This document shows positions 46,054 to 63,226 of a DNA stretch of 64,000 nt, one piece after another; positions within the stretch are counted from its first letter, which is position 1; the number at the start of each line of letters is the position of its first letter. The notes beneath the pieces were generated by a model. It was not told the origin of the DNA, searched no databases, and saw only the letters and a list, made by a program, of their open reading frames with translations. Source of the DNA: an uncultured Acidobacterium sp. (GTDB taxonomy: Bacteria; Acidobacteriota; Terriglobia; Terriglobales; Acidobacteriaceae); the NCBI GenBank assembly GCA_964610635.1, contig CAZSWI010000003.1:194-64193 (forward strand). The letters run 5' to 3'. The translations under genes and the position numbers were made by a program.

Positions 46054-47064
46054 ATGGCAAGGCAACCACTGGTCAGCATCGTAACGCCGGTCTACAACGA
46101 GGCGGGCTATCTCGGCGAATGTATCGAAAGCGTTCTCGCTCAGACATACACGAACTGGGATTACACCATCATCGATAACTGCAGCACGGATGGGTCCGGG
46201 GACGTGGCCCGGCGGTATGCGGCCAAAGACCCGCGGATACGCGTCCATCGCAACGCCGATTTTCTCAGCGTCATTGCGAACCACAATGTAGCCCTGCGAC
46301 AGATTTCTCCGGAGAGCAAATACTGCAAGATGGTCCTCGGAGACGATCTGATCTACCCGAATTGTCTCGAGAAAATGGTTGGGCTCGCGGAGGCAAATCC
46401 GTCGGTGGGGATGGTTGGCGCCTATGCGCAGGAAGGGGAGCGGATTGCGTGGACCGGATTACCGCGCGAGGAATCGGTCGTGCCGGGCCGGGAAATCTGC
46501 CGCCGCCACCTTCTGGAGGGGCTGCACATCTTTGGGTCTGCCAACGCCGTGCTGTATCGCGCGGATCTGGTGAGGGGCCGGAACCCCTTCTATAGCGAGA
46601 CGAACATTCATGCGGACACCGAAGTTTCCTTCGCGCTTCTGAAGAAATGCGATTTTGGCTTCGTGCATGAGGTTCTCACATTCACTCGGGTCCGGCAGGC
46701 GTCGCTGAGCACAGTGTCCCGAGGTCTGCACACCTACTTCGGCGGCACGCTGCAGGTCCTGCTGGGCTACGGGCCGGATTATCTGACCATGGAAGAGTAC
46801 GAAGCCGAGTTAACCTGGCATTTGGCGGACTATTACAGGTTTCTGGGCAAGAGCTTGATCCAGCGCCGCGAGCCGAAGTTCTGGGAGTATCACAAACGCC
46901 AGCTGGAGCAGGCGGGGCTGGGCTTTAGCCGGCTGCGGGTCGCGGCTGGCGCGGTGTCAGCCCTGGGTCACGTGGCGGCAAAGAGGTTACGGAAAAGCAA
47001 GATGACCGGCAGGTCCGGAAAGTCCGGTACCGGGATCGGCGAACCTATAACCAGGGATTGTTAA
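46054..47064 (+). CDS. Glycosyltransferase family 2
   Basis: The N-terminus reads VSIVTPVYNEAGYLGECIESVLAQTYTNWDYTIIDNCSTDGS, and the DxD-like motif reads VLGDDL. Confidence 0.85.
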   Translation: MARQPLVSIVTPVYNEAGYLGECIESVLAQTYTNWDYTIIDNCSTDGSGDVARRYAAKDPRIRVHRNADFLSVIANHNVALRQISPESKYCKMVLGDDLIYPNCLEKMVGLAEANPSVGMVGAYAQEGERIAWTGLPREESVVPGREICRRHLLEGLHIFGSANAVLYRADLVRGRNPFYSETNIHADTEVSFALLKKCDFGFVHEVLTFTRVRQASLSTVSRGLHTYFGGTLQVLLGYGPDYLTMEEYEAELTWHLADYYRFLGKSLIQRREPKFWEYHKRQLEQAGLGFSRLRVAAGAVSALGHVAAKRLRKSKMTGRSGKSGTGIGEPITRDC

Positions 47065-47172: not shown

Positions 47173-48141
47173 TTGAAAGCGACGGAGTTAAACGAGCGAA
47201 TAGCCGGAAGATCGGTGCTTGTTACGGGGGCGAGTGGCTTCATCGGAACACACCTTTGCGATCGTCTGATCGCCGGCGGCGCGCAGATTCACGCGATTTC
47301 CCGGACGCGGCAGGAGTCGGAGGGCGAGCAATTGCGATGGTGGCAGGCCGACCTGAGAGACGTTGACGCGGTGCGGCAGCTGGTAGCGGCCCTGCAACCC
47401 CAGATCGTGTTTCATCTGGCCAGCTACGTCATGGGGGCCCGGGAGCTGGGGGTCGTGGTTCAGACCTTCTATGACAATCTCGCCAGCACCGTTCATCTGC
47501 TGACTGCGGCGGCTGAGACGGGATGCCGGCGTCTTGTGCTGGCCAGTTCGTCGGAGGAGCCGCTGAACCCCGCGGGCGACGGCTTTCCGTGCTCTCCTTA
47601 TGCGGCGGCCAAGTGGGCGAGCGGCATGTACGGACGGATGTTTCACCAGCTGTTCGGTTTGCCCGTGGTTATGCCTCGTATCAATATGACTTACGGTCCA
47701 AACCAGAGGGACTTACAAAAGCTGGTGCCGTTCGTAGTCCGTCACTTGATGCGCGCGGAAGCCCCGAAGCTCAGCAGCGGTCAGAGGCGCGCCGACTGGA
47801 TTTACGTTGACGATGTGGTGGAGGGGCTCTTGAGAGCCGCGGTCTGTCCCGGGATAGAAGGCTGCGCGTTCGATCTGGGCACCGGCAGGCTGACCTCTGT
47901 GCGCGAAATCGTGGAACAGATTGTCGAGATTATGGACAGTCCGGTCAAGCCCGCCTTTGGCGCCCTGCAGGATCGGCCATTTGAACAGGAGAGGCCCGCG
48001 GATACGACCTTTCTCGCCGAGAAGCTGGACTATCAGCCCGGAACCACAATTAGGCGCGGGCTTGAAGAGACAGTCGAGTGGTATCGGCGGCAGTTCAGCC
48101 CGGCGCTGGCAGGTACTGCGGCAGAGGCAGGGAATTCGTAA
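47173..48141 (+). CDS. Extended-SDR NAD-dependent epimerase/dehydratase
   Basis: The TTG at 47173 follows GGAGG. The Rossmann motif is VLVTGASGFIGTHLCDRL and the catalytic motif is YAAAK. Confidence 0.85.
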   Translation: MKATELNERIAGRSVLVTGASGFIGTHLCDRLIAGGAQIHAISRTRQESEGEQLRWWQADLRDVDAVRQLVAALQPQIVFHLASYVMGARELGVVVQTFYDNLASTVHLLTAAAETGCRRLVLASSSEEPLNPAGDGFPCSPYAAAKWASGMYGRMFHQLFGLPVVMPRINMTYGPNQRDLQKLVPFVVRHLMRAEAPKLSSGQRRADWIYVDDVVEGLLRAAVCPGIEGCAFDLGTGRLTSVREIVEQIVEIMDSPVKPAFGALQDRPFEQERPADTTFLAEKLDYQPGTTIRRGLEETVEWYRRQFSPALAGTAAEAGNS

Positions 48142-48269: not shown

Positions 48270-50252
48270 ATGAAGACTGCGCAAAACGATTCTGTGGGGA
48301 CGGCGGTCCGCCAGGTTGCGGCGATCGTGTTGGTTGCTGCATTCCTGAGCCTGCCGGTATGGCTGGTTGGAATTCCGCAAACCGGCGATGGCTCGACCCA
48401 TGTGGGGTATCAATATCACTTCAGCAAGCAGTTCTTTCACGGCGACTTCTATCCGCGATGGCTGGCCGGCTCGAACAAAGGCTACGGCGCCCCGATATTC
48501 TTCGTGCAGTACCCGTTTCCGTACTTTGTGACAGCGCTGCTGCGTCCTGTGACCTGGTTCTCAGCAACGACTACGAGGGAAGCGCACGAACTGGGACTGT
48601 ATTGCCTGCTGGTGCTGGCAGCAGCTGGTCTGGCGGCAAGAACATGGTTTCGCAGCCGCTATAGCCCGCTCGCATCGACCATCGGGGCGGTGGTGTATAT
48701 CTCCCTGCCCTATATAGTCGGCCAGACGATCTACGAGCGGGCGTCTCTCGGCGAGCTGGCGGCCTTCGTCTGGATGCCATTAATCTTTTTGCTGTGCGAC
48801 CGCCTTCGTCCGGTTCGCTTCAGTGTGCTGAGCGGCATCGGAGTGCTGTTTGCGCTGTTGATTTTCAGCAATGTTCTGACGGCCGCATTGTTTGCTCCGG
48901 CGATGGTGCTGTACCCGGTCTTCGTGGGCAGGGATTCAGGCATGCCGCTGATTCGCCGGGTGGCGCCGATGTTCGCCGCGTTTATTATCGGGACCGGGGT
49001 GGCCGCGGCCTACGTGTTTCCGATGCTGTCGTATCACCGGCTGTTCGATGCCGGCGCCGTGCCGAAACACCATCCCGTTGCCGAGCTGGGTCGATCCCTG
49101 GTCAGCATCACCCGCAGCGACTTTTCCAATTACCACATTATTATTCCGGGAGCGATGGTGGCTGTGTGCATCATCCTTTTCGCCGCATTCCATGTATGGC
49201 GGGCCCAGGCGGGATCGATTGGGCGATGGCTGGTACTGGGAACCCTGGCAGCGGGCGTGGCGATGCTTGTTCCTGGGCTGGGGCCGAAACTGATCCAGCT
49301 GAGCGGTCTGAAAACAACGGGATTCGACAGCTACAACGGATTTGTTGCAAGGATGCTGTTCACGATGCTGTTCACCGCGGGATTGGGAATGCTTGCCTGG
49401 TGCCGCGTTGCTCGAGAGAAAACGGATGACAGAGAGAGCTTCCTGCTGGCCGTGTGCTGCTTCGCATTCGTGTTGGCGCTGCCGTGGAGCGCGATTCTGT
49501 GGAAGACGATGCCGGTATTTGGCGATGTCATCCAGTTTCCCTGGAGGCTGTGCGCGGTTCTGACTGTCGCGGTTGGCGGCCTCTTCGCCGCCGCCGTCGA
49601 CGATGGCCTGCGTAACAGAGAGAGCAGCCGAGCCAAGCCGTCGCTGCGGGTGATGGTGTCGGCCGCGCTCGTCGTCATTGTCGCCAGCAACATGATCTGG
49701 CGAGTCGATCAGAAGTTCCGCCACCCGAGTACTCCTCACTATGACGCATCGCGGGATGTGGATCCGATGTACAACACCTACGTTCCCGACAGCAAACTTG
49801 TCGCGTTTGCGAAGCTCGTGGGAACTTCCCCTGAAACCTGGCAGGTGGCTCCGACGCCGCCCGTCGAGGGTGTGCGTGCGGAACTGACCGGCAGTACGGG
49901 AACCGTGCAGGTGACCCGCGAAGGGCCGCGCGAGCTGCTGGTTTCCGTACAATCCGAAGGAAATGCCCGGGTGGAGATCGGGCAGCTGGATTTTCCGCTC
50001 TGGAGAATCGTGCCCGCAGGGAACGCGGCGCAGGATGAGTCGCTGAGCACATCCGATGCGGGGCTGGTCGAGGTATCGGTGGGTCCGGGCAAGCACGATT
50101 TCCGGTTGCTGCTCGATGCCGGCAGGCCTGCGCGCTGGGGCGACATCGTTACACTGTTATCGGTGGTGCTGATTGCGGTGGGGCTCGTCGTTTCTGCTTT
50201 GATGACAGGACAGACACAACGGAATGCGGACAGACACCTTGTTTCATCGTAG
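48270..50252 (+). CDS. Large polytopic membrane protein, possibly a GT-C-like glycosyltransferase
   Basis: There are at least 12 hydrophobic helices followed by a ~200-aa C-terminal soluble domain and a final TM helix. The N-terminal loop GDGSTHVGYQYHFSKQFFHGDFYPRWLAGSNKGYGAPIFFVQYPFPYF resembles a family of uncharacterised integral membrane proteins found in glycan loci. Confidence 0.55.
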   Translation: MKTAQNDSVGTAVRQVAAIVLVAAFLSLPVWLVGIPQTGDGSTHVGYQYHFSKQFFHGDFYPRWLAGSNKGYGAPIFFVQYPFPYFVTALLRPVTWFSATTTREAHELGLYCLLVLAAAGLAARTWFRSRYSPLASTIGAVVYISLPYIVGQTIYERASLGELAAFVWMPLIFLLCDRLRPVRFSVLSGIGVLFALLIFSNVLTAALFAPAMVLYPVFVGRDSGMPLIRRVAPMFAAFIIGTGVAAAYVFPMLSYHRLFDAGAVPKHHPVAELGRSLVSITRSDFSNYHIIIPGAMVAVCIILFAAFHVWRAQAGSIGRWLVLGTLAAGVAMLVPGLGPKLIQLSGLKTTGFDSYNGFVARMLFTMLFTAGLGMLAWCRVAREKTDDRESFLLAVCCFAFVLALPWSAILWKTMPVFGDVIQFPWRLCAVLTVAVGGLFAAAVDDGLRNRESSRAKPSLRVMVSAALVVIVASNMIWRVDQKFRHPSTPHYDASRDVDPMYNTYVPDSKLVAFAKLVGTSPETWQVAPTPPVEGVRAELTGSTGTVQVTREGPRELLVSVQSEGNARVEIGQLDFPLWRIVPAGNAAQDESLSTSDAGLVEVSVGPGKHDFRLLLDAGRPARWGDIVTLLSVVLIAVGLVVSALMTGQTQRNADRHLVSS

Positions 50253-50300: not shown

Positions 50301-52418
50301 TTGAGGAAGTCACGCAAGCTCCTTCTGGGTGCTGTCGCGGTAGTTGCTGTCGGCGGGGCGATAGCGGCAATTTTTGCATTCAAATCCCTCTCGCGCGGAG
50401 CGACGCTGGAGATGATGACCTGGCGCGCGAAGCTGTTTGCGCGCAAAGCGGAGGGTCGCCTGCCTGACCTGTCATGGCGGGAAATCTGGTTCATGACGCA
50501 CGTTCACGGCGGTTTCGGCCTCGAGGGCGTAACCGACGAAGGATTCAGTCTGGATGGCGCGCTCGTAAATCCTTTCGTGACCGATGCGGACCATCAGGCC
50601 GGAGCGCGAACATTCCGGCAACGTTGCGGGACCTGCCACGGCAAATCGGGAGGCGGCGGATTTGGCCCTCCTCTGAATCATCCGGGGCTGAAGCATGGTG
50701 ACAGCGACCTGGCGATTTACAAAGTAATACGGGAAGGCATTGGCGGAACCGCGATGCCTCGCGTTACCATGACCGCTCAGGACCGCTGGCAGCTGGTCGG
50801 CTATCTGAGGACTTTGCAGGTTGCCGATTCCGGCCATCAGACGGATGATGCGGTCCCGGCAGACCTCCAGGTGAGTAATGGGGATCTTGTCGAGGCGGGG
50901 AACAAAACCGATCGGTGGCTAACATACTCGGGCACTCTCGACGGACATCGTTACACTCCACTCACCGAAATTACTCCAAAGAACGTTGCGGGTCTTCGTA
51001 TCCGTTGGGTTCACCAATACGACACAAACGAAACATCAAGAAGCGAAGCCACACCTCTTGTAATCGACGGAACGATTTTTCTGACAGAGCCGCCGGCCAA
51101 CGTCGTTGCTCTGAATGCGGCGACCGGGGCGGTAAGGTGGCGCTACAGCCGCACCATACCCGATAAGTTGCCGATATGCTGTGCGCGGTCGAACCGGGGG
51201 CTGGCAATCCTGGGCAACGTGCTGTACTTCGGTAGTCTCGATGGTCATCTGATCGCTATCAATGCGGTTACTGGAAGCGTGATTTGGGATACCGGTGTGT
51301 GCAGCCCGTCCGAAGGTTTCACGATGACGGGTGCGCCACTGATCGCTAACGACTCGGTCGTGGTGGGCGTGGCAGGCGGCGAGTATGGAGTGCGCGGTTT
51401 TCTGGCGGCCTACGACACAAAGACGGGTCAGCAGCGATGGAAGTTCAACACGATACCGGGTCCGGGCGAATTCGGACATGATAGTTGGAAGAGCGATGCC
51501 TGGAAAACGGGCGGTGGTCCCACCTGGGTTACGGGGAGTTTCGATCCATCTCTCGACCTCGTTTACTGGGGCGTCGGCAATCCGGCGCCTAATTTTCTGG
51601 GCGATATTCGGGGCGGCGACAACCTGTTCACCGACAGCGTAATCGCGCTGCACCGCGGCAGCGGCAAGCTTGCCTGGTATTTTCAGTTCACGCCTCACGA
51701 CGAACACGATTGGGACGCGGCGCAGACTCCGGTGCTGGCGGATCTGCCCATCCGGGGCGTCACAAGGAAAGTGCTCTGCACAGCGGACCGGAATGGGTTC
51801 TACTATGTGCTCGATCGAACCACCGGCGAGTTTCTGGTGGGTGTGCCTTTCGTGGCGCAGAACTGGGCGAAAGGTCTCGATGCGCGAGGACGACCCATCC
51901 TTACGGACAATGCCGAGGTATCGGTCACCGGCAAATTGACCAGGCCAGGCGTTGCCGGGGGCATCAACTGGCAGAACACGGCGCTCGATCAAAAGCGGGG
52001 ACTGATTTTCGTCCCTTCGACGGAAGGGGCTTCCGTTTTCACGAAGTCCGCGGACGCTGAGCCCGCGCGCGGTGACCAGGGACTCTATCCGGGCAGTTCC
52101 GGCAGCGCCAGCGAACAGCCTGATCCGGTCATCAAGGCGCTCGATGCCGCGACGGGGGACAGGAAATGGGAACTGCCCCTGCCGCCCTGGAAAAAATCCT
52201 TCGGCTACGGCTACAGCGGTCTCCTGGCTACGGGGGGTGGTCTCGTTTTCGGCTCGTCGGGAGGCTACACCTTTGCGATCGATTCGGGCACCGGCCACGA
52301 GATGTGGAGGGTATTCCTCGGCGCGGACACCTATGCCGCGCCCATCTCATTCACCGTTGACGGGCGCCAGGTGATTGCGGTATCGGCCGGCCGGTCTTTG
52401 TACATGTTTGGACTCTGA
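50301..52418 (+). CDS. PQQ-dependent dehydrogenase (methanol/ethanol family beta-propeller) with an N-terminal membrane anchor and c-type cytochrome domain
   Basis: The TTG at 50301 follows GGAGGA. A TM/signal segment reads LLLGAVAVVAVGGAIAAIF. The heme motif is CGTCHG, with a downstream GGTAMP. The propeller shows WLTYSGTLDGHRYTPL, the vicinal CC in LPICCARSNRG, and TPHDEHDWD. Confidence 0.85.
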   Translation: MRKSRKLLLGAVAVVAVGGAIAAIFAFKSLSRGATLEMMTWRAKLFARKAEGRLPDLSWREIWFMTHVHGGFGLEGVTDEGFSLDGALVNPFVTDADHQAGARTFRQRCGTCHGKSGGGGFGPPLNHPGLKHGDSDLAIYKVIREGIGGTAMPRVTMTAQDRWQLVGYLRTLQVADSGHQTDDAVPADLQVSNGDLVEAGNKTDRWLTYSGTLDGHRYTPLTEITPKNVAGLRIRWVHQYDTNETSRSEATPLVIDGTIFLTEPPANVVALNAATGAVRWRYSRTIPDKLPICCARSNRGLAILGNVLYFGSLDGHLIAINAVTGSVIWDTGVCSPSEGFTMTGAPLIANDSVVVGVAGGEYGVRGFLAAYDTKTGQQRWKFNTIPGPGEFGHDSWKSDAWKTGGGPTWVTGSFDPSLDLVYWGVGNPAPNFLGDIRGGDNLFTDSVIALHRGSGKLAWYFQFTPHDEHDWDAAQTPVLADLPIRGVTRKVLCTADRNGFYYVLDRTTGEFLVGVPFVAQNWAKGLDARGRPILTDNAEVSVTGKLTRPGVAGGINWQNTALDQKRGLIFVPSTEGASVFTKSADAEPARGDQGLYPGSSGSASEQPDPVIKALDAATGDRKWELPLPPWKKSFGYGYSGLLATGGGLVFGSSGGYTFAIDSGTGHEMWRVFLGADTYAAPISFTVDGRQVIAVSAGRSLYMFGL

Positions 52419-52857
52419 TCGGATCCGGCGCTGGTGGGTTCCGGAGTGGCCGAGCCCGCGGCTGCGAGGCGGGGTCATGAACCCGGATAGATTGAGGCGG
52501 GCGGTGCGGTTGCCACAAACCGGTGTGTCGCTGAATGTGGTTGCGATCTCGGTTCGAGCGGGTCGCCGCTGACACAACCGGGCGGGAGCGAACCGCATCC
52601 AGAATAACTGCACTGGTCGACTCAGAATCGTCTGCCGCAGTAAAAATCAGCGCGAACCAGCCATTGGGCCTGGGGGAGTTTGCCGGGAGCTGACATTTTT
52701 TTGCGGCGCTCCTACAACCTTAGTGTTACTAAAGTGAAACTTTCGGTTCTGCTTGCGCTAATGTGACTACTGGAACCTTGCGGCGGTCACAATGGGACCG
52801 ATAGACTGACCGTTGAATGGGGCCGGCGGAACGTTTTGGGTGTGGAGGATTTTTCTC

Positions 52858-54348
52858 GTGAGACGCATTGTTTTCCTATTTGCGATTTTTTCCCTGTGCA
52901 CGCTCGCAGGGGCGCAGACTCCAACGCTGGTTCAGCACGTCAGCTGCCCAAATTCAGGAGGCGCCGGAAGCGGCATTGGCGGCGCCATCAGCAATACACC
53001 GGTCTATCAGTGCCCGTTGCCGGAACCGACACAAGCGGGAAATGCCATTATCCTGGGGCTCATTTCGAACAATTCGGGCAATCCGACCTGGACCATATCC
53101 GATGACAAATCGAATGGGTGGACCCTCGGGGCAAGTACGACCGATAGCCAGGGGAACATTATTGCCGTGTACTACGCGCTCAACGTAACGGCCGGGACGA
53201 GAATGCTTTCCGTAAAGAGCTCAGCCGCGACCCAGGGTAACCTGGCGGTTTCCGCCAGCGAGTATTACAACGTTGCTTCCACCGCCGCCCTCGATGCCAA
53301 AAGCTGCAGTGCGGGTTCGAATTCCAAGTCGATCGCCGCGGGAAGCATTACGCCGACTGCTTCCGGAGACCTCCTGTGGCAGTGGGCGGCCACCGCCAAT
53401 ACCTCTTCCGTAACGTCTATCGCAGCAGGCTCCCAGTCGAATATCTCCTGGCAGCTGAACGGAACCGATATCGACGATGGAGACGCCACTCAGGCGGGAG
53501 TCTATAACTCGACCGCCGCGATCAATCCCACATTCAGCAGCGCCACGTCTCAGCCTTTCGACTCCTGCGTCGTCGCCCTGAAGGCTGCCAGCGCCGGCAA
53601 TGCGCCGACGAAGGCATTCCGCATCGTCCACATGCTGCACGAGCAGGAGACTTCAAGCGCGCCCAGTACTTATCCGGTAGAGATGCCGACGTCGGGCAAC
53701 CTGGTCGTGCTCTCCTTCATATCGGGGGGGAATGCCATAACCGGGATCAGCAGCGTCCCCGCGAATAACTGGACGGCCACGGGCCAGGCGATCAGCTCGG
53801 GCCAGCAGGCCACCAGCCAGATCTATTACGCTGCAAATGCCAGCAGCTCAAACTCGATGACTCTCTCGATCAATCAAAATGGAACCATGACCGGTTCCAC
53901 ATTCATGATGTATGACTTTGTCGGCGCCGCGACATCGCCCTTCGATGTGGACTCAGGCGGCCTGGAGGGTGACCAGCAAAGTGCCGTTACCAGCCTCACA
54001 AGCTGCAATAACTGCTTTACGCCGTCGGCGGCCAACGAAGCGATCATCGGAAATATTGGAAATGCATGGTGCACCGCGACCGGCCTCACGGCGCCGGCGG
54101 GTGGGTTGTTCGACGTTGCTGTCTATACCGGCAACAGCGTGAATGGCCCGGAAAGCGTGGATCAGAACAACGGTTGGTTTCATTACTACAGCACCGGCAC
54201 CAGCCCGGTCTCGGTGACCTGGAACTACCTCTGCGGCGGCGATGCGGAAGGGGTTTGGACCGGTCGCCTGGCGGCGTTCAAGCCGGGTTCCCAGAATCAG
54301 CCTGCGCCACCGACCGGGTTGACAGGAACGGTCGTACCTCAGGCATAA
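52858..54348 (+). CDS. Secreted protein of unknown function built from two homologous ~230-aa halves
   Basis: The GTG at 52858 lies 9 nt after GGAGG and gives the signal peptide VRRIVFLFAIFSLCTLAGA. The composition is S/T/A/G/N-rich. Half 1 (LVQHVSC...GNAIILGLIS...WTISDDKSNGWT...IIAVYYALNV) parallels half 2 (IVHMLHE...GNLVVLSFIS...ISSVPANNWT...QIYYAANA). The ORF is open from 52813. Confidence 0.55.
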   Translation: MRRIVFLFAIFSLCTLAGAQTPTLVQHVSCPNSGGAGSGIGGAISNTPVYQCPLPEPTQAGNAIILGLISNNSGNPTWTISDDKSNGWTLGASTTDSQGNIIAVYYALNVTAGTRMLSVKSSAATQGNLAVSASEYYNVASTAALDAKSCSAGSNSKSIAAGSITPTASGDLLWQWAATANTSSVTSIAAGSQSNISWQLNGTDIDDGDATQAGVYNSTAAINPTFSSATSQPFDSCVVALKAASAGNAPTKAFRIVHMLHEQETSSAPSTYPVEMPTSGNLVVLSFISGGNAITGISSVPANNWTATGQAISSGQQATSQIYYAANASSSNSMTLSINQNGTMTGSTFMMYDFVGAATSPFDVDSGGLEGDQQSAVTSLTSCNNCFTPSAANEAIIGNIGNAWCTATGLTAPAGGLFDVAVYTGNSVNGPESVDQNNGWFHYYSTGTSPVSVTWNYLCGGDAEGVWTGRLAAFKPGSQNQPAPPTGLTGTVVPQA

Positions 54349-55057: not shown

Positions 55058-58000
55058 GTGAATATGTCGCCAGCAGTTACTCCCCTTCGTATGTCGCCTG
55101 TCCGCTTTTTTTATTTATTTGTTGTCGGCACTCTCTGGATGGTTCCCGCGCTGTTGCTCGCGCCGGCCACCGCCGCTCAGGCGGGGGATACATATACCGT
55201 CACGGTGCTCACGGACGACTATAGCGGCAGTACCAGCAATCTGAATGGCACCGCGGGTAATTGCCCGGCCAACGGCAACGGCGGGAACTGCTCTCTGCGC
55301 GATGCGATCACGGCGGCCAACGGGGACGCGGGAAGCACGGTCAACTTTACCGGGCTCGCGGGCGATCTTCCGCTGGGGTATTCGCTTCCGCCGATTGCGG
55401 TGAACATGACCATCGACGGGACGGGCGCGGCCATCACCATCGACGGCCAGAATGCGACCGCTGCGATAGCCGTTAATTCCGGCACGGTGATCGTTCAAAA
55501 CCTGACCATCGCCAATGGAAATTCCGCCACTGAGGGCGGCCTTGGCGGGGCGATCTACAACAACGGGAACCTCACGGTGAACGGCGTCGTCTTCCAGAGC
55601 GACACCACTGAAGGCGGCGGTACAGGCGGCGCCATTTACAACAGCGGAACTCTGGCGGTGAATACCAGCAGCTTCAACAACGACTCCGCCGGAGCGGGCG
55701 GCGCAATCTACAACGACGCGGGCGGCACTTTGACGGTGAGTGACTGCACCTTTAACGGAAACACGGCCAACACCTTTGGCGGCGCGGTTTTCCAGAACAA
55801 CGGCAACCTGCTGACCGTCACCACCAGCACCTTCGTCGGTAATACGGCTCTTGGCGGTTACGGTGGCGGCGTGTACAGCGCAGCGACCGGCGCCAGCGTC
55901 ACAGTTCAGGACAGCACATTTTCCGGAAACGTTGCCGCCACGGCTGGCGGCGGCGTCGCATACAAAGGCACGGTTCTGACGCTCGAAAACAACATCTTCG
56001 TGGAATCGACCGAGTGCTTTGCCGAAAGTGGTTCAACCTGCCCGGCAACAGGCGGCGTCGATGCGAATGGCAACCTGGTCGGATCCAGCGCGAACACCAG
56101 CGCCGCCAGTCTTGGCCTGCTTCCTCCTGGCAGCTACGGCGGCCCCACCCAAACCATGCTGCCTTTGCCTGGCAGCGCTGCAATCTGCGCCGGGAACGCC
56201 ACACTTGTGCCGGGCGGCCTCGCTACCTATGTCGATCAGCGCGGTTTTGTATCGAATGCCACCTGTGCGGATGCGGGCGCGGATCAATCGAACTACATCA
56301 CGGTTACCACTGGCGCCGATGACGCCATCCCCGGTAATGCAGGGCACTGCCCCGGCGCGGCCTGCACGCTGCGCGATGCCATTGCGGCCGCCAACGCTGT
56401 CCTGGGCGGAGATATCGACTTCAATAACGGTCTGAGCACCATCACCATCGGAATTCCAACCACGGCGACGGAAGGTCCGAGCATCTTCTACGACACTAAT
56501 GTTATTGGGCCCGGTGCAAATTCCCTCACCGTCACAGGCCAAAATGGCTACGTACTCCTCGGCGCAAAAGGTGGCAATGTTTATCTTTCCGGGATGACGT
56601 TTGCCAACGGGTACAACAACTCCAATCCCCCCGCCAATGAGGACGGGACCGGTGGTGCGATCTACAACCAGACCAACCTCACGGTGACCGGGATGTCCTT
56701 CACCGGCAATACCGCGACCAATGCGGGCGGCGCGATCTACAGCCAAACCGGCACGGTCAACGTTTTCGACAGCACCTTTGCCAACAATACGTCTCCGGCG
56801 GGCAGCGCCATCTTTAACAACGACACGGCCGACCTGTTGACGGTTGAGTACAGCACCTTCACAGGCAATACCGCGAATAATGCCGGCGCCATCCACAGTG
56901 TTTACGGTGCGCCGCTGAGCGTGTACAACACCACCCTGTCGGGCAACACGCCGTACGGAATCAATTTCGACAACGGCACCCTGGTTGCGAAAAACGACAT
57001 CTTCGCGGACACAGGCGAGTGCACCAGCGCTTATTGCCCAACATCGGGCGGCGGCAACGTCTATCCCGCTTCCACACCGGCTTTGGCCGCGCTCGGCAAT
57101 TACGGCGGGACCACTCAGACCATGATCCCGCCGCCGGGAAGCTCTGCCATCTGCGCAGGTCTGGCAGCTGATATTCCCGCGGGAGTCACCATCGATCAGC
57201 GCGGCTTCGCGAACACGAATACCACTTACACCGGGGTGACGTCGCCCTGTGTCGACGCGGGTGCGGTGCAGACGGCCTACACTTCGGCGCAGTTCGTCAA
57301 CCCGGGCACGCCGTATACAGGGAACGCCAACTCGCCGAGCATCAGTCCGGAAGTGGTCGTTTCCATAACTGAAAACGGCCTGAACCAGGGTGGCGTACCG
57401 ATAACTCTGGCGCTGGGTGGAACGGGACCGGGGACGATCGCGGCCGGGACCGGAACGGCTACTACCGTTACCGGCACCGGGGCGAGCTTCGGCAATCTCA
57501 CAATTGACTCGGCTAGCGGGACAACGGACGACTACACACTGTCGGTTTCAATTCCGGTTGTCGGCACTTATTCCCTTGCGGCCGGACCTGAAGATCTCAC
57601 CCTCGACCCGGGGCCGGGGATCACCATCTCGCCGTCCACATTGCCGGCTGCCACGATCGGCGTGGCTTACGCGCATAACCTGACCGCCAGTGGCGGCACG
57701 GCTCCCTATACCTTTACGAAGACGGGCATGCTGCCAGCCGGAATCGCGATGTCCAACGCGGGCCACTTCACGGGAACGCCCACAGAGGCCGGCAGCTTCA
57801 CAATCTCAGTAACCGCAACCGACAGTAACGGCTACTTCGCCCGGCAGGATTACACGCTCACGGTGAACGCCCCAACGATCACGATGACGCCGGCCGCGGG
57901 TACCCTCGCGGTGACCGAGAACGTAGCGTACAGCCAGACCTTCACCGCCGCCGCCGGTACGGCGCCCTACACCTATACGCAGACCGGCACTCTGCCCACA

Positions 58001-61000
58001 GGCCTTACGTGGCACGCCGGGACCCATATCATCTCCGGAACGACGACCGACATCGGCTCCTTCCCAATCACCGTAAAAGCACAAGACAGCAGCACTGGTA
58101 CCGGCGCACCGTTTAGCCAGACCTTCAGCTACACCATCGTGGTCAGCGCGCCCACGATCACCATTGCTCCCACGACCTTGACCGCTGCAACCGTGGGCGT
58201 GGCCTACAGCCAGCAGCTCACGGCGTCAGCCGGATCTGGTGGCTACACCTATGCAATAACCTCAGGGGCGAAGCCCGCCGGGATCAACCTGTCCACTGGA
58301 GGCCTGCTCTCCGGAACGCCGACGGAAGGCGGAACCTTTAACTTCACCGTAACCGCGACCGACAGTGACAACAACACGGGGGCACAGGCCTACACATGGA
58401 CGGTCAATGTTCCCACCATCACCATTACCCCGGCGGCGGGAACGCTGTCCGCAACGAAGAATGTAGCGTACAGCCAGACCTTTACAGTCAGCGGCGGGAC
58501 GCCGACCTACACCTGGTCAGAGACGGGAACGCTGCCGGCAGGCATCACCTTCAATACTGCGACGGCAACGCTTTCCGGAACGACGACGGCAACCGGCTCT
58601 TTCCCGATCACCATCAAGGCGCAGGACAGCAGCACTGGATCAGGACCGTATAGCCAGAGCAATGGGTATACGCTGTCGGTAACTGCGCCCACGATCACCA
58701 TTGCGCCCACCACCCTGACCGCACCAGCCGATGGTGTTGCTTACAGTCAGCAGCTCACCGCCAGCGGTGGCGTAGCGGCGTATACCTACGCGATAACAAC
58801 AGGCGCCGCGCCTGCCGGGATCACACTGTCCACCGGGGGTCTGCTCTCCGGAACGCCGACGGCAGGCGGAGCCTATAGCTTCACCGTGACTGCAACCGAC
58901 CACAACGGCAACACCGGCGCACAGGCCTACTCCGGAACGGTCACCGCTCCGACCATCACCATTACCCCAGCGGCCGGAACGCTCGCCGCAACGAAGAATG
59001 TGGCATACAGCCAGACCTTTACAGTCAGCGGCGGAACGCCCACCTACACCTGGTCAGAGACGGGAACGCTGCCGGCAGGCATCACCTTCAATACTGCGAC
59101 GGCAACGCTTTCCGGAACGACGACGGCAACCGGCTCTTTCCCGATCACCATCAAGGCGCAGGACAGCAGCACTGGATCAGGACCGTATAGCCAGAGCAAT
59201 GGGTACACGCTTACGGTCACTGCGCCCACGATCACCATCGCTCCCACCACCCTTACCGCGCCCACAGTGGGCGTGGCGTATAGCCAGCAACTCACTGCCA
59301 GCGGTGGCGTAGCTACGTATACCTACGCGATAACAACAGGCGCAGCGCCTGCCGGCATCACGCTGTCCAACGCGGGTCTGCTCTCGGGAACGCCGACGGC
59401 CGGCGGAGCTTATAGCTTCACCGTGACCGCAACCGACCACAACGGGAACACCGGCGCGCAGGCTTACTCCGGAACGGTGACCGCTCCGACGATCGCAATT
59501 TTGCCTGCGGCGGGACCGCTGACGGCTACAGGAGAAACAGCCTACAGCCAGACCTTCACAGCCAGCGGCGGCACGCCGTCTTACACCTGGCTGGAGACGG
59601 GAACGCTGCCGACGGGCATCACGTTCAATACTGCGACGGCAACCCTCTCAGGAACCCCCACGCAGGGTGGCTCTTTCCCGATCACTATCAAGGCGACGGA
59701 CAGCAGCACGGGATCAGGACCGTACAACCAGAGCAACGCTTATACGCTGACCGTCAACGGGCCGACGATCACAGTTTCGCCGGCATCGCTGGCGGCGGCC
59801 ACGGTTGCCGTGACCTACAGCCAGACATTCACTGCTACCGGCGGCGCCGGTACTTATACCTATACCGAGACCGGGACTCTGCCCGCAGGGCTCAGTTTGA
59901 GCACAGCGGGTGTGCTCTCCGGAACGCCAACCCAGGCTGGCAGCTTCCCCATCACCGTGACCGCGAAGGACAGCGACAACTTTACCGGAAGCAAAGCGTA
60001 CACGTTGACGGTCAATGGACCAGCCATCACAGTGCTGCCTGCGGCGGGTACGTTAACGGCGACTGCGGAAGTGGCGTATAGCCAGACCTTCACGGCAAGC
60101 GGCGGAACATCGCCCTACACTTATGCAGAGACCGGGACCCTGCCGACGGGCATCACGTTCAACACCGCAACGGCAACGCTCTCCGGGACTGCGACGCAAG
60201 CCGGCTCGTTCCCGATCTCCATCAAGGTCACGGACAGCACCACGGGCACGGGTTCTCCGTTTAGTCAGACCAACGCCTATACGCTGACGGTCAGCGGGCC
60301 CACGATCACGATCACGCCAACGTCGCTGACTGCGGCAACGGCTGACGCGGCTTACAGCCAGCAATTCGCCGCCAGCGGTGGAACAGGCACTTACACCTGG
60401 ACGGAAACGGGCGCGCTGCCGGCCGGGATCACCCTCTCCGCTGCAGGTCTCCTCTCCGGAACACCGGCGGCGGCGGGCAGCTTCCCCATCACTGTAACTG
60501 CCAAAGACGGTGACAGCTTCACGGGCACTGAGAACGTGACGCTGACCGTGAACGGTCCGACGCTCGCGATGCTGCCGGCCAGTCTGCCAGCGGCATCGAC
60601 GAATGTAGCCTACACGCAGACCTTCACGGCCAGCGGAGGCGCCTCGCCTTACACCTGGACTGAGACGGGCGCATTGCCAACCGGCATCACGTGGACCGCT
60701 GCAACCGCCACGCTCGCCGGAACCCCGACGGTAAGCGGGACATTCCCCATCACCATCAAGGTGACGGACAGCACCACGGGAACCGGTTCGCCATTCAGCA
60801 AGACCGTTGGATACACCCTGTCGGTGAGCGCACCGACGATCACGATCACGCCGGCCACACTTCCAGCAGCCACGGTGGCCGCGGCGTACAGCCAGAGTGT
60901 CGCCGCCGGCGGTGGCACTTCGCCCTATACCTATACCGTTACAACCGGAGCGTTGCCTGCCGGTCTCACGTTGAGCTCGGCTGGGACGATTGCGGGGACG

Positions 61001-62968
61001 CCGACCGCGGGTGGAAGCTTCACCTTCACCGTGACCGCCAGGGACAGCGCCAACTTTACCGGCACGCAGAACTACACCCTGACGGTAGGTGCACCAACCG
61101 TTGCACTGACGCCCGCGGCTGGGACGCTGTCCGCGGCTGCCAACGCTGCTTACAGCCAGTCCTTCACGGCGAGCGGCGGCACGGCGCCCTATACCTACAC
61201 GGAAACAGGGACGCTGCCCACCGGGTTGACCTTTAACAGCAGCACAGGCGTGCTGGCCGGAACGCCCACAGTGACCGGTAGCTTCCCGATCACGGTGAAA
61301 GCGACCGACAGCAGCACCGGAACAGGTCCTTACTCGAGCGCAGCAGTCGCTTACACCCTGTCGGTTGGAACCGCCGGAGTTACGATCACGTGGGCCAGCC
61401 CCTCGCCGATCGCCTACGGGACCACTCTGTCAGGAGTTCTGGACGCGACTGCATCCTATAACGGCGGCACGGTAGCTGGGACCTTCACTTATACGGCAAC
61501 TCCCACGGGCGGTTCGGCCACCACGGTGACCGCGTCAACCGTGCTGACTGCTGGCGCCTATACTCTGACGGCCAGCTTCGCACCGTCCAATAACTCTTAC
61601 GCAGCTCCGACGCCGAAGACGGTCCCCCTGACTGTCAATCAGGATCAGCCGGCAATTACGTGGGCGCCGGCTTCCAGCATTCCTTATGGAACCACCCTCT
61701 CGGCTCTGCTGAACGCGACTGCCAGCTTTGGCGGTAACTCAGTCGCGGGCAGCTTCGCGTACACAGCTACTCCCACGGGTGGCACTGCGGCGGCGGTAAC
61801 TGCCTCCACCGTGCTGACCCAGGGCACGTACACTCTCGGTGTAACCTTCACACCGACTGACAATACCGACTACAAAACGGCCACGGCGACGGCGCCGCTG
61901 TCCGTCACCAGCGGAACCCTCACCGTAACGGCCAACAACGCCACTCGAGTTTACGGCGTGGCGAATCCAACCTTCACTGGAACCATCACCGGCCAGCAAA
62001 ACGGCGACACCTTCACTGAGTCCTTCGCGACGACCGCAACAATCAGTTCCACCGTTGGAAATTACTCCATCGTCCCCAGCGCAAGCGGAGCGAATCTGAG
62101 CGATTACACCGTGGTGATCGATGACGGAACGCTGACCGTTACCCAGGCGGCCAGCACGACGACGCTGGCAGTCAACAACAGTACAGTCGGCGTGGGAGGC
62201 ACGTTGATGCTGACCGCCACGGTCGCTTCGGCGACAACCGGTACTCCCACCGGGACTGTCAATTTCTACGATGGATCGACGCTGCTCAATACCGCGACTT
62301 TGAGCGCGGGCGTCGCGACATATTCGACAACGACCCTCTCGTCGGGAAGCCATACGATCACCGCGGTCTACAGCGGCGACACCAACTTCACCGCCAGCAG
62401 CACGGCTTCGGCGACAACCATCACCGTTGCGGCGCTGGACTTTACGATGGCTGCGACGCCCTCTTCACAACTGGGGAATGCGGGCACGACCTTTACCTAC
62501 CAGTTGGCATTAGCGCCGACCTACGCCGGGACGAACTATCCTGGTACGGTGACGTTCAGCGCGATTGGTATGCCGGCCGGGTCCACTGTGACATTCACCC
62601 CGTCCTCGGTTGCTGCCAACGCGGGACCGCAGACGGTCGACATGGCCGTCGCCACAGCCGCCACGGGTTCGGCGGCGGTTCGGCCCTTCGACCTCGGCCG
62701 CAAGATGGCGCCGCTGGCGCTGGCATTCCTCCTCTTGCCTTTCGCGGGCACCGGGAGAATGCGGCGGAACGGACGCCGCTTGAGCCGTATGATCTGCCTG
62801 CTTCTGCTGGCGCTCGGCGGTGTCGTAGCCACCACGGCGCTTTCCGGATGCGGCAGCAACGGCGGTTCCGGACAAAAGACGTCGCAGGGAACCCTCTACA
62901 CAATCACGGTCGCGGGGACGACCGGCGCCGACACTCACACTGCAACCGTCACCTTAACGGTTGAATAA
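55058..62968 (+). CDS. Giant (2636-aa) cell-surface protein: signal peptide, two choice-of-anchor-Q-type beta-helix modules, 14 putative-Ig (He_PIG-like) domains, MBG-type and Ig group-3-like domains, and a C-terminal membrane-hairpin module
   Basis: The signal peptide reads FFYLFVVGTLWMVPALLLAPATAAQA, with a start at GTG 55058 or ATG 55064. CSLRDAITAAN (~55289) and CTLRDAIAAAN (~56363) are each followed by GGAIYN-type beta-helix repeats and a ...YGGPTQTM.P.PGSAAICAG end motif. There are 14 ~89-aa repeats (57617-61369). RVYGVANPTFTG...GNYSIVPS is MBG-like, and GTVNFYDGSTLL...HTITAVYSGDTNF is Big_3-like. Confidence 0.9.
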   Translation: MNMSPAVTPLRMSPVRFFYLFVVGTLWMVPALLLAPATAAQAGDTYTVTVLTDDYSGSTSNLNGTAGNCPANGNGGNCSLRDAITAANGDAGSTVNFTGLAGDLPLGYSLPPIAVNMTIDGTGAAITIDGQNATAAIAVNSGTVIVQNLTIANGNSATEGGLGGAIYNNGNLTVNGVVFQSDTTEGGGTGGAIYNSGTLAVNTSSFNNDSAGAGGAIYNDAGGTLTVSDCTFNGNTANTFGGAVFQNNGNLLTVTTSTFVGNTALGGYGGGVYSAATGASVTVQDSTFSGNVAATAGGGVAYKGTVLTLENNIFVESTECFAESGSTCPATGGVDANGNLVGSSANTSAASLGLLPPGSYGGPTQTMLPLPGSAAICAGNATLVPGGLATYVDQRGFVSNATCADAGADQSNYITVTTGADDAIPGNAGHCPGAACTLRDAIAAANAVLGGDIDFNNGLSTITIGIPTTATEGPSIFYDTNVIGPGANSLTVTGQNGYVLLGAKGGNVYLSGMTFANGYNNSNPPANEDGTGGAIYNQTNLTVTGMSFTGNTATNAGGAIYSQTGTVNVFDSTFANNTSPAGSAIFNNDTADLLTVEYSTFTGNTANNAGAIHSVYGAPLSVYNTTLSGNTPYGINFDNGTLVAKNDIFADTGECTSAYCPTSGGGNVYPASTPALAALGNYGGTTQTMIPPPGSSAICAGLAADIPAGVTIDQRGFANTNTTYTGVTSPCVDAGAVQTAYTSAQFVNPGTPYTGNANSPSISPEVVVSITENGLNQGGVPITLALGGTGPGTIAAGTGTATTVTGTGASFGNLTIDSASGTTDDYTLSVSIPVVGTYSLAAGPEDLTLDPGPGITISPSTLPAATIGVAYAHNLTASGGTAPYTFTKTGMLPAGIAMSNAGHFTGTPTEAGSFTISVTATDSNGYFARQDYTLTVNAPTITMTPAAGTLAVTENVAYSQTFTAAAGTAPYTYTQTGTLPTGLTWHAGTHIISGTTTDIGSFPITVKAQDSSTGTGAPFSQTFSYTIVVSAPTITIAPTTLTAATVGVAYSQQLTASAGSGGYTYAITSGAKPAGINLSTGGLLSGTPTEGGTFNFTVTATDSDNNTGAQAYTWTVNVPTITITPAAGTLSATKNVAYSQTFTVSGGTPTYTWSETGTLPAGITFNTATATLSGTTTATGSFPITIKAQDSSTGSGPYSQSNGYTLSVTAPTITIAPTTLTAPADGVAYSQQLTASGGVAAYTYAITTGAAPAGITLSTGGLLSGTPTAGGAYSFTVTATDHNGNTGAQAYSGTVTAPTITITPAAGTLAATKNVAYSQTFTVSGGTPTYTWSETGTLPAGITFNTATATLSGTTTATGSFPITIKAQDSSTGSGPYSQSNGYTLTVTAPTITIAPTTLTAPTVGVAYSQQLTASGGVATYTYAITTGAAPAGITLSNAGLLSGTPTAGGAYSFTVTATDHNGNTGAQAYSGTVTAPTIAILPAAGPLTATGETAYSQTFTASGGTPSYTWLETGTLPTGITFNTATATLSGTPTQGGSFPITIKATDSSTGSGPYNQSNAYTLTVNGPTITVSPASLAAATVAVTYSQTFTATGGAGTYTYTETGTLPAGLSLSTAGVLSGTPTQAGSFPITVTAKDSDNFTGSKAYTLTVNGPAITVLPAAGTLTATAEVAYSQTFTASGGTSPYTYAETGTLPTGITFNTATATLSGTATQAGSFPISIKVTDSTTGTGSPFSQTNAYTLTVSGPTITITPTSLTAATADAAYSQQFAASGGTGTYTWTETGALPAGITLSAAGLLSGTPAAAGSFPITVTAKDGDSFTGTENVTLTVNGPTLAMLPASLPAASTNVAYTQTFTASGGASPYTWTETGALPTGITWTAATATLAGTPTVSGTFPITIKVTDSTTGTGSPFSKTVGYTLSVSAPTITITPATLPAATVAAAYSQSVAAGGGTSPYTYTVTTGALPAGLTLSSAGTIAGTPTAGGSFTFTVTARDSANFTGTQNYTLTVGAPTVALTPAAGTLSAAANAAYSQSFTASGGTAPYTYTETGTLPTGLTFNSSTGVLAGTPTVTGSFPITVKATDSSTGTGPYSSAAVAYTLSVGTAGVTITWASPSPIAYGTTLSGVLDATASYNGGTVAGTFTYTATPTGGSATTVTASTVLTAGAYTLTASFAPSNNSYAAPTPKTVPLTVNQDQPAITWAPASSIPYGTTLSALLNATASFGGNSVAGSFAYTATPTGGTAAAVTASTVLTQGTYTLGVTFTPTDNTDYKTATATAPLSVTSGTLTVTANNATRVYGVANPTFTGTITGQQNGDTFTESFATTATISSTVGNYSIVPSASGANLSDYTVVIDDGTLTVTQAASTTTLAVNNSTVGVGGTLMLTATVASATTGTPTGTVNFYDGSTLLNTATLSAGVATYSTTTLSSGSHTITAVYSGDTNFTASSTASATTITVAALDFTMAATPSSQLGNAGTTFTYQLALAPTYAGTNYPGTVTFSAIGMPAGSTVTFTPSSVAANAGPQTVDMAVATAATGSAAVRPFDLGRKMAPLALAFLLLPFAGTGRMRRNGRRLSRMICLLLLALGGVVATTALSGCGSNGGSGQKTSQGTLYTITVAGTTGADTHTATVTLTVE
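57617..61369 (+). repeat. Array of 14 ~89-aa Ig-like (He_PIG-type) coding repeats arranged as seven alternating A/B pairs
   Basis: Type A has the form TL.AAT.GVAYSQQL.ASGG...YTY.IT.GA.PAGITLS..GLLSGTPT.GG..FTVTATD. Type B has the form AAGTL.AT..VAYSQTFT.SGGT..YT..ETGTLP.GITFN.ATATLSGT.T..GSFPITIKA.DSSTG. Confidence 0.9.
58421..59494 (+). repeat. Tandem duplication (2 x 537 bp, each one A/B-type domain pair) inside the giant gene
   Basis: Copy 1 spans 58421-58957 and copy 2 spans 58958-59494. They share a 164-nt perfectly identical core (58505-58668 versus 59042-59205). The antisense track ORFs 58507..58713 and 59044..59295 share identical peptide tails, confirming the identity. Confidence 0.9.
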
Positions 62969-63012: not shown

Positions 63013-63043
63013 GGCCGGACCGATAAGGTCCGGCCTTTTTGTT
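63013..63043 (+). terminator. Rho-independent terminator downstream of the giant gene
   Basis: The structure is GGCCGGACC (63013-63021), loop GATAA, GGTCCGGCC (63027-63035), then TTTTTGTT. This is a perfect 9-bp GC-rich stem plus a T-tract, 45 nt after the stop codon. Confidence 0.85.
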
Positions 63044-63226
63044 CGTGTTGCCCTCGAGAGCACAACCAGCAACGGCGCATGGCCGCCGGGAATAAATGCT
63101 ATAGAGCTATGCGGTAAATTGCATATGCCCGGGACCTTTTCGCGCGTGGGTAAAGTCGAGACGCGAATCGGAGACTGCTATATTTGTGAGTCGTAATTCA
63201 GGGAAATTCGTATTCAGGAGGCAATT

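Follow-up and report, generated by a model that had tools for sequence, protein, structure and literature searches.

Bacterial lipoproteins are, by the textbook definition, anchored at the N-terminus. The C-terminal anchors known to us each require a dedicated enzyme, namely a sortase, exosortase, rhombosortase, archaeosortase or myxosortase. Here we analyzed the tail, that is the last 110 residues, of a 2,636-residue protein encoded in a 64,000-nucleotide stretch of DNA (the window; all positions given below refer to it) from an uncultured Acidobacterium sp. (GenBank assembly GCA_964610635.1, contig CAZSWI010000003.1, positions 194 to 64,193 of the forward strand). The tail contains two hydrophobic segments (helix 1 and helix 2) separated by a basic loop, and helix 2 ends in a lipoprotein-like Cys motif (lipobox) that is followed by a short C-terminal end.

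The closest published parallel to this tail is the MYXO-CTERM module of the Myxococcota. MYXO-CTERM proteins combine an invariant Cys, for which lipidation is predicted, with a helix and an Arg-rich end, and they are cleaved for surface display by the CPBP protease myxosortase (PMC11980579). The tail likewise behaves as a C-terminal module on many probable surface proteins and combines an invariant Cys, a predicted transmembrane helix and an Arg-rich stretch that is predicted to be cytoplasmic. However, MYXO-CTERM has only one helix, located after the Cys, and is cut by a CPBP protease dedicated to it, whereas the Cys of the tail belongs to a standard lipobox that follows a second helix, and the tail has no known dedicated enzyme. 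No Cys was observed before helix 1, and the MYXO-CTERM model did not match.

The tags of the PEP-CTERM/exosortase, GlyGly-CTERM/rhombosortase, LPXTG/sortase and PGF-CTERM/archaeosortase systems also resemble the tail, as they are modular, are found on diverse passengers including choice-of-anchor proteins and have a helix followed by basic residues. Unlike these tags, the tail has none of the signature motifs, and its chain does not end with the basic cluster but goes on to form a second helix and a folded element. In the case of PEP-CTERM, there is no PEP motif, approximately 85 residues follow the basic cluster and no PEP-CTERM model was matched at E≤10. An LPXTG-like reading of the sequence LP[FL]AG was considered and rejected, because this motif is at the cytoplasmic end of helix 1, on the wrong side of the membrane, and matched no model. 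With classical lipoproteins (the substrates of Lgt, LspA and Lnt) the tail shares a positively charged n-region, an h-region of approximately 20 residues and L-[ST]-G-C followed by G-S. It differs from them in that the signal is located approximately 2,570 residues into the chain and after a putative stop-transfer helix, and in that the 'mature' part has only 39 residues, with the bulk of the protein located N-terminal to the signal.

When the last 107-256 amino acids of the protein were scanned alone, the tail matched the NCBIfam model NF058595 ('invert_tail') with 58.0 bits (cut-off 37; E=1e-15) over profile positions 2-112 of 113. This model is present in the June 2026 release of NCBIfam and is described as 'lipo-invert putative C-terminal anchoring domain-containing protein'. 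Ten out of ten diverse tails from other proteins also scored above the cut-off (37.3-65.1 bits). Two hydrophobic segments, a basic cluster between them and a second segment ending in a Cys lipobox are all present in the window tail; we take these to define the family from the name of the model and its matches, rather than from the text of the curators. The window tail agrees with the family from end to end, including the short end after the Cys motif, and no difference was observed. Judged by this profile match, the window tail is a member of an already catalogued, uncharacterised family. An earlier reading of the bare sequence (the original prediction) had seen no recognised C-terminal sorting signal here, which is contradicted by the NF058595 match. 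All other sorting-signal models failed to match the window tail at E≤10. What is added here to the catalogued family is evidence for a split domain, from which we propose a non-covalent tethering by a lipidated beta-hairpin.

In contrast to the scan of the tail alone (62645-62965), NF058595 was not matched when the whole 2,636-residue protein (55058-62965) was scanned, and among 29 full-length proteins bearing the tail (carriers) it was reported for only six in whole-protein scans. Whole-protein annotation pipelines thus probably miss most members of the family, and the tails are probably under-annotated. The database names of the carriers that we saw include 'CSLREA domain-containing', 'sugar lactone lactonase YvrE' and 'hypothetical', and none of them mentions the tail.

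The carrier ends in exactly the sequence given by the original prediction, and the coordinates that it had stated (62705-62965, with the Cys codon at 62849-62851) were confirmed by translation of the open reading frame (ORF) (Table 1). In the final immunoglobulin (Ig)-like domain of the protein, the loop that leads to the last beta-hairpin is interrupted by 70 additional residues. This insertion comprises the short hydrophobic helix 1, the loop with a net charge of about +6 and helix 2 ending in a canonical lipobox. Another protein, P0015, has two uninterrupted copies of the same domain. When the insertion was deleted, the remaining window domain (111 aa) aligned end to end with these copies, and in the same alignment the hairpin-bearing homologues showed an insertion of 70-75 columns in the loop before the last two strands. 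The BLASTP alignment of the hairpin-deleted domain with P0015 (E=1e-12, 38 % identity) crosses the junction. The two flanks had been suspected to form one Ig-like domain, and both alignments agree with this.

Structure prediction with AlphaFold2 (AF2) gave a consistent picture. With the insertion present, the flanking strands were modelled with predicted local distance difference test (pLDDT) scores of >90 and 85-96, and the overall predicted template modelling (pTM) score was 0.59. With the insertion removed, a check that the original prediction had proposed, AF2 gave a single Ig-like sandwich of eight strands and no helix (pLDDT 90.6, pTM 0.79), in which the last hairpin reached a pLDDT of 93-94. 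Foldseek matched this structure to Ig-like domains over approximately 110 columns (query-normalised template modelling score 0.63-0.68), including a sialidase linker domain, the Vpr peptidase and PapD-like chaperones. No solved relative was detectable in a sequence search of the PDB. From the strand order alone, the insertion point and the C-terminus would be located at the end of the sandwich opposite the N-terminus, which would fit a stalk rising from the membrane.

Conservation was counted over 157 tails, and as these were chosen by similarity to a profile that contains the positions in question, the counts are somewhat favoured; despite this selection, the conserved columns stand far above the neighbouring ones. 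At the lipobox, Cys is found in 156 tails, Gly at position -1 in 155, Ser or Thr at -2 in 140 and Leu, Val or Met at -3 in 147. The residue at +2 is Gly in 140 tails and Asp in none. Outside the lipobox, highly constant positions include the LLLP motif of helix 1 (Leu45 151, Leu47 151 and Pro48 150), the first Arg of the loop (Arg56, 154) and the Tyr that opens the last hairpin (Tyr99, 155). The lead-in to helix 1 is less conserved (Gly34 93, Arg35 92 and Pro39 119). The mean lengths of helix 1 and helix 2 are 14.6 and 19.6 residues, respectively, and the spacing from the Cys to the C-terminal end is 36±1 residues.

In the window tail, RRLSRM is followed by ICLLLLALGGVVATTA, LSG and the Cys, so that a basic n-region, an uncharged h-region and a lipobox of the form [LVI][ASTVI][GAS]C are all present. 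The Cys is residue 2598 of 2,636, far from the N-terminal placement that is typical of lipoprotein precursors (Cys at approximately 15-35). A PROSITE-style lipobox rule was satisfied by 148 of 157 fragments beginning at the loop. In addition, a rough scan of the window and the related loci for N-terminal lipoprotein signals gave 22 candidates, 12 of which have LSGC followed by GS, most of these 12 being orthologues of one family; an ORF of the window itself (4658-6763) has the N-terminal lipobox FAGC followed by GT. The claim that helix 2 and LSGC look like a full lipoprotein signal is supported by these data. The same is true for the positive-inside charge pattern claimed earlier, since the loop has an average net charge of +5.8 (range 4-8), compared with +1.3 for the part preceding helix 1 and +0.3 for the part that follows the Cys. 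The loop is thus predicted, by its charge, to be cytoplasmic and may double as the n-region of the lipoprotein-type signal.

Between the window and two related loci (L004 and L003), the 35 codons of both helices and the lipobox differ at 5-7 synonymous and no non-synonymous sites, and the 78 codons of the N-terminal part of the Ig-like domain at 26-27 synonymous and 11 non-synonymous sites. The helices of the tail are under purifying selection. We also observed that synonymous differences themselves are rarer in the helices (62705-62851; 5-7 in 35 codons) than in the N-terminal part (62429-62656; 26-27 in 78 codons), though the numbers are small. This scarcity could reflect constraint at the nucleotide level or exchange between tails.

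The arrangement is not limited to this gene. It was found in 13 homologues with 38-66 % identity, and a genome scan, in which a narrow pattern was used so that the range found is a lower bound, gave 32 loci, all in metagenome-assembled genomes of Terriglobales or Acidobacteriaceae. At 31 of these 32 loci the tail profile matches in full length at the extreme C-terminus of one ORF, and the carriers span 352 to >3,452 aa. A metagenome scan with a second subfamily of tails added 80 further loci, 66 of them with a full tail; among the 56 distinct metagenome tails listed, the match ends 0-3 residues before the stop codon. When the profile was compared with 1.84 billion cluster representatives, 6,666 matched at E≤1e-3, 1,965 at E≤1e-10 and 95 at E≤1e-30. 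Of 156 full matches in this set, 141 end on the last residue of the protein, and the window tail also ends on the last residue before its stop codon. The search for the same C-terminal arrangement on other large proteins, which had been suggested with the original prediction, was therefore successful, and the arrangement is not unique to one gene; such uniqueness had been named as a sign of gene fusion. A six-frame pattern scan of the window found no second tail of the same kind.

Database 'proteins' of 69-107 aa were considered as stand-alone small lipoprotein genes and rejected, because they start at a Met, Val or Leu within the usual tail sequence. Two short stand-alone tail proteins were traced, one to a gene call at a contig edge and the other to a frameshifted long-read assembly. 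On a 455-kb long-read contig (L034, 3906-6318), a tail gene of the NHL/Big_3_5 type is annotated as three overlapping genes, one of which encodes the tail by itself (105 aa), most likely through a frameshift error or in a pseudogene.

The domains preceding the tail vary. The window carrier was counted as 2,636 codons from a GTG, and one of the in-frame ATG codons at 55064 and 55091 is the likely start. Its domains are a CSLREA N-terminal domain, choice-of-anchor Q (both NCBIfam), Chlam_PMP repeats, an array of He_PIG Ig domains (14 matches), MBG_2 and Big_3_5 (all Pfam), and the tail. Its N-terminus is probably a Sec-type signal peptide, which would place the passenger outside the cytoplasm; the passenger thus reads as an exported, adhesin-like repeat protein. 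Among the 29 full-length carriers, NHL propellers were found in 14, SBBP in 12, He_PIG in five, beta-helix in three, TIG in two and FG-GAP in one; choice-of-anchor domains were of type Q (15), D (8) and Z (1). The stalk before the tail usually consists of MBG_2 (14/29) and Big_3_5 (25/29). Of the 70 carriers with an initial Met, among which there are many fragments, 39 have a hydrophobic segment at the N-terminus, and among the hydrophobic N-termini listed many look Sec-type and end in AQA- or AHA-type sites. The tail, which is almost always at the extreme C-terminus and follows unrelated passengers, thus behaves like a sorting or anchoring module. Relatives of the choice-of-anchor domains bear surface-sorting signals elsewhere.

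We consider it reasonably probable that the tail acts through its internal lipoprotein signal to give a C-terminal lipid anchor. From the features described above, we infer lipidation and LspA cleavage at the Cys (both raised as possibilities by the original prediction), a surface location and a fate for helix 1 in the following manner. The passenger would be exported via Sec by its N-terminal signal until helix 1, acting as a stop-transfer segment oriented from outside to inside, halts the transfer. The Arg-rich loop would be retained in the cytoplasm, and helix 2 would re-insert from inside to outside like a lipoprotein signal peptide, taking the last 36 residues out. Lgt would then put diacylglycerol on Cys2598, LspA would cut before it and Lnt would acylate the new N-terminus. 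The resulting 39-residue lipopeptide would contribute strands 7 and 8 and so stay bound to the passenger by strand complementation. The giant protein would be lipid-anchored at the C-terminal end and would thereby invert the layout of ordinary lipoproteins, which are anchored at the N-terminus. Because the passenger would still be joined to the hairpin after LspA cleavage, a cut at or before helix 1 would be needed for it to leave the inner membrane. We speculate that a rhomboid, site-2 or CPBP-type protease might make this second cut in or before helix 1 and free the two-chain complex for possible sorting to the outer membrane or to the cell surface. Among these, site-2 protease and rhomboids are housekeeping candidates; the former clears signal-peptide remnants, and the latter cut helices that run from outside to inside.

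A more demanding version of this proposal, which we regard as tentative, is that the tail is a self-contained device. The cut by signal peptidase II would fall within a folded Ig-like domain, and the 39-residue triacylated lipopeptide would remain in place as strands 7 and 8; once the hairpin is removed, it would be the only lipid anchor, and a non-covalent one. Such an anchor would allow Lol or other sorting machinery to bring giant proteins of the adhesin-like type to the outer membrane of Acidobacteriota. Beta-sandwich or related domains that are held non-covalently after a cut, or are completed by a strand of another chain, are known from SEA and GAIN domains (in mucins and adhesion G protein-coupled receptors) and from donor-strand complementation in chaperone-usher pili. 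As in those cases, a large extracellular part would be tethered to a membrane piece, though there is no homology to the tail, and the cut, which in SEA and GAIN domains is autoproteolytic, would be made here by signal peptidase II in the membrane.

Several points weigh against an anchor made by the lipoprotein enzymes. Lgt and LspA act on N-terminal signals, and we know of no precedent for their action at a distance of approximately 2,600 residues from the start of a chain. With approximately 15 residues, helix 1 is rather short to cross a membrane, and the two helices (94-106 and 116-138 of the AF2 model) have a pLDDT of only 50-69. The LspA cut alone would leave the passenger on the inner-membrane hairpin of helix 1, loop and helix 2, and the second cut that is then required is speculative. 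No conserved protease neighbour was found when the ORFs of the 32 loci were clustered, which gave only exopolysaccharide enzymes (UDP-glucose dehydrogenase and glycosyltransferases) and other Ig-repeat lipoproteins. The modelled domains were single chains, and retention of the lipopeptide after cleavage is hypothetical. A full-text search for 'lipo-invert' gave no paper or experiment, and nothing relevant was found on an internal or C-terminal lipobox or on Acidobacteria.

Four other explanations were weighed. In the first, the two helices do no more than hold the protein in the inner membrane as a helical-hairpin anchor, the lipobox-like motif is left unprocessed and the constancy of Cys and Gly is due to packing or some other function. 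This would account for the two predicted helices and the strongly basic loop and needs no second protease, and processing is so far inferred only. However, Cys in 156 and Gly in 155 of 157 tails, together with the match to N-terminal lipoboxes of related genomes, are hard to ascribe to packing. The fixed 36-residue end that completes the Ig-like fold suggests that the part after the Cys matters, and the choice-of-anchor-type passengers also argue against a plain hairpin. We therefore regard this explanation as unlikely.

Slightly less likely again is a dedicated sorting enzyme (exosortase-, rhombosortase- or CPBP/myxosortase-like) that cuts helix 1 and the Arg cluster as a tripartite signal and so defines the anchor in place of Lgt and LspA. 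No PEP, GlyGly, LPXTG or Cys-containing motif precedes helix 1, and among the sorting-signal models only NF058595 matches the window tail (E≤10). No exosortase or rhombosortase was found among the multi-pass ORFs of the window that were scanned, the 32 loci show no conserved protease neighbour, and the invariant lipobox after helix 2 would be left unexplained. In favour of such an enzyme, helix 1 and the basic cluster resemble the back two-thirds of known C-terminal sorting signals, with the conserved LLLP and the G-R-x-L-A-P lead-in, and the window has both an exopolysaccharide locus with XrtA-system-like matches and an ORF for a protease of the CPBP family (478-1476) with matches to the myxosortase core, all of these matches being sub-threshold. 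In one other tail (P0010), helix 1, loop and helix 2 also weakly match NF033207, 'midcut-by-XrtH' (E=0.0013; 18.8 bits, cut-off 45), a family with a sorting signal in mid-protein, by its name one for an exosortase; this match is probably compositional. A dedicated enzyme for the cut at helix 1 would be compatible with a lipid anchor made by Lgt and LspA.

Translation might also start internally, at the in-frame ATG 62759-62761, giving a separate prolipoprotein of approximately 69 residues that complements a truncated Ig-like domain. The sequence from MRRNGRR to LSGC reads as a complete prolipoprotein, and at 28 of 31 loci of the RMR subfamily (L001-L031) the codon before the ATG is one of the rare Arg codons AGA and AGG (AGA ATG at 62756-62761 in the window), so that a Shine-Dalgarno-like GGAGA is directly upstream; this sample is biased as the pattern used in the genome scan forced a Met at the candidate start. 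AGA or AGG is used at approximately 1 of 150 of the six other loop Arg positions at these loci, with a passenger background of 15 %. However, the Shine-Dalgarno-like core is just 0-1 nt from the ATG, and the same position has CTN, a non-start codon, in 21 of 56 tails of the second subfamily (family-wide, Leu in 66, Met in 61 and Val in 15 of 157 tails). The same codons are also found at positions that toggle between Lys and Arg, a neutral explanation; neutral history, rather than an internal start, probably accounts for the pattern. The full-length frame is always open through the tail, and the short stand-alone tail proteins that were traced are contig-edge and frameshift artefacts, while the others listed start inside the usual tail. 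An internal start is thus very improbable. Finally, an assembly or annotation artefact that fused a large gene to a small lipoprotein gene has nothing in its favour beyond the odd look of the sequence and can be excluded for practical purposes, since 31 genome assemblies of independent origin, 66 loci from metagenomes and thousands of proteins in the databases show the same in-frame arrangement, the ortholog at L004 (89.6 % identical over 2,615 aa) has the same genes on both flanks and both halves belong to one domain.

Table 1 Positions of the carrier gene, the parts of its tail and other features of the window
Feature	Position	Strand	Basis
Chain-length determinant, XrtA-system-like	11502-13097		NCBIfam match below equivalog cut-off
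XrtA/PEP-CTERM-system-like amidotransferase	34173-36071		NCBIfam match below equivalog cut-off
MOP flippase	42162-43622		exopolysaccharide locus; NCBIfam match below equivalog cut-off
Pyruvyl transferase	44420-45991		exopolysaccharide locus; NCBIfam match below equivalog cut-off
GT2	46054-47061		exopolysaccharide locus; NCBIfam match below equivalog cut-off
Epimerase	47173-48138		exopolysaccharide locus; NCBIfam match below equivalog cut-off
Carrier gene, probable secreted repeat protein	55058..62968	+	ORF; Pfam and NCBIfam domains; ortholog L004
Probable Sec-type signal peptide, MSPAVTPLRMSPVRFFYLFVVGTLWMVPALLLAPATAAQA then GD (ending in LLLAPATAAQA before GD)	55064..55183	+	reading of the sequence
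MBG_2 and Big_3_5, stalk preceding the tail	61919..62431	+	domain matches
Ig-like domain, strands 1-6 (AALDFTMAATPSS...PQTVDMAVAT)	62429..62656	+	AF2 strands in residues 5-75, pLDDT >90; alignment to uninterrupted copies
Linker from strand 6 to helix 1 (AATGSAAVRPFDLGRK) with semi-conserved G-R-x-L-A-P lead-in	62657..62704	+	AF2; conservation
Helix 1, short hydrophobic segment MAPLALAFLLLPFAG with conserved LLLP	62705..62749	+	AF2 helix 94-106; conservation
Basic loop TGRMRRNGRRLSRM	62750..62791	+	net charge; conservation of Arg56
Helix 2 ICLLLLALGGVVATTALSG, putative h-region of internal lipoprotein-type signal	62792..62848	+	AF2 helix 116-138; conservation
Lipobox L-S-G-C	62840..62851	+	Cys2598 codon TGC at 62849-62851
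Gly/Ser-rich tether after the Cys (GSNGGSGQKTSQGTL)	62852..62896	+	pLDDT <50; family consensus G-S-x-N-G-F-F-x-Q
Last beta-hairpin YTITVAGTTGADTHTATVTLTVE, strands 7 and 8 of the same Ig-like domain	62897..62965	+	AF2; conservation of Tyr99
Stop codon TAA	62966-62968	+	end of ORF
Intrinsic-terminator-like hairpin (63013-63035) and T run	63013..63045	+	45 nt past the stop codon

A large exopolysaccharide locus covers positions ~10000-48200 of the window, and at related loci, too, the tail gene is found next to genes for UDP-glucose dehydrogenase and glycosyltransferases. Two multi-pass membrane proteins, one encoded at 20673-22121 (+; ~10 hydrophobic segments; no match in an NCBIfam scan) and one at 48270-50249 (+; ~13 hydrophobic segments; no Pfam or NCBIfam match), might be polymerases of the Wzy-like type or have another function; the second is encoded 5 kb upstream of the giant gene. 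Between the exopolysaccharide locus and the giant gene there is a pyrroloquinoline quinone-dependent dehydrogenase with an N-terminal cytochrome c domain (50301-52415, +). The gene directly upstream of the giant gene (52813-54345, +) encodes a 511-aa protein that matches no family and is found in the same position at L003 and L004 with 89-93 % identity.

The ORF at 4658-6763 (+) encodes an N-terminal lipoprotein with Ig repeats of the choice-of-anchor D / ASH / Cep192 type, with FAGC followed by GT and, in its relatives, LSGC followed by GS. It is 50 kb from the tail gene in the window, and its relatives adjoin the tail gene at 18-19 of the 32 loci (L002, L005, L006, L009, L010, L017, L020 and others), approximately 2-8 kb downstream and on the opposite strand. 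This lipoprotein family could be a partner of the tail gene or could merely share its synteny. The CPBP-family intramembrane protease ORF (478-1476, +) has ~5 hydrophobic segments and sub-threshold matches to the myxosortase core model Mrt_core (E=9e-4) and to MrtS. It is too far from the tail gene (54 kb), and its match too weak, to be tied to the tail.

The tail family suggests a third route to surface anchoring, beside N-terminal lipoproteins and C-terminal anchors with dedicated enzymes, in which a topology-inverting helix sets an internal lipoprotein signal in the last domain and the ordinary Lgt, LspA and Lnt produce a lipid anchor at the C-terminal end. Should this hold, Lgt and LspA would have a wider range of substrates, including signals that are thousands of residues away from the N-terminus, and the tail would be a natural example of a domain that is cut in two and kept together by strand complementation. 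As a self-contained device, if it is one, the tail would be a bacterial counterpart of split tethering of the SEA/GAIN type and of C-terminal lipid anchoring like that by glycosylphosphatidylinositol. The third route, if real, would also account for the display of very large repeat proteins, encoded beside exopolysaccharide loci, by the Acidobacteriota that are abundant in soil and peat.

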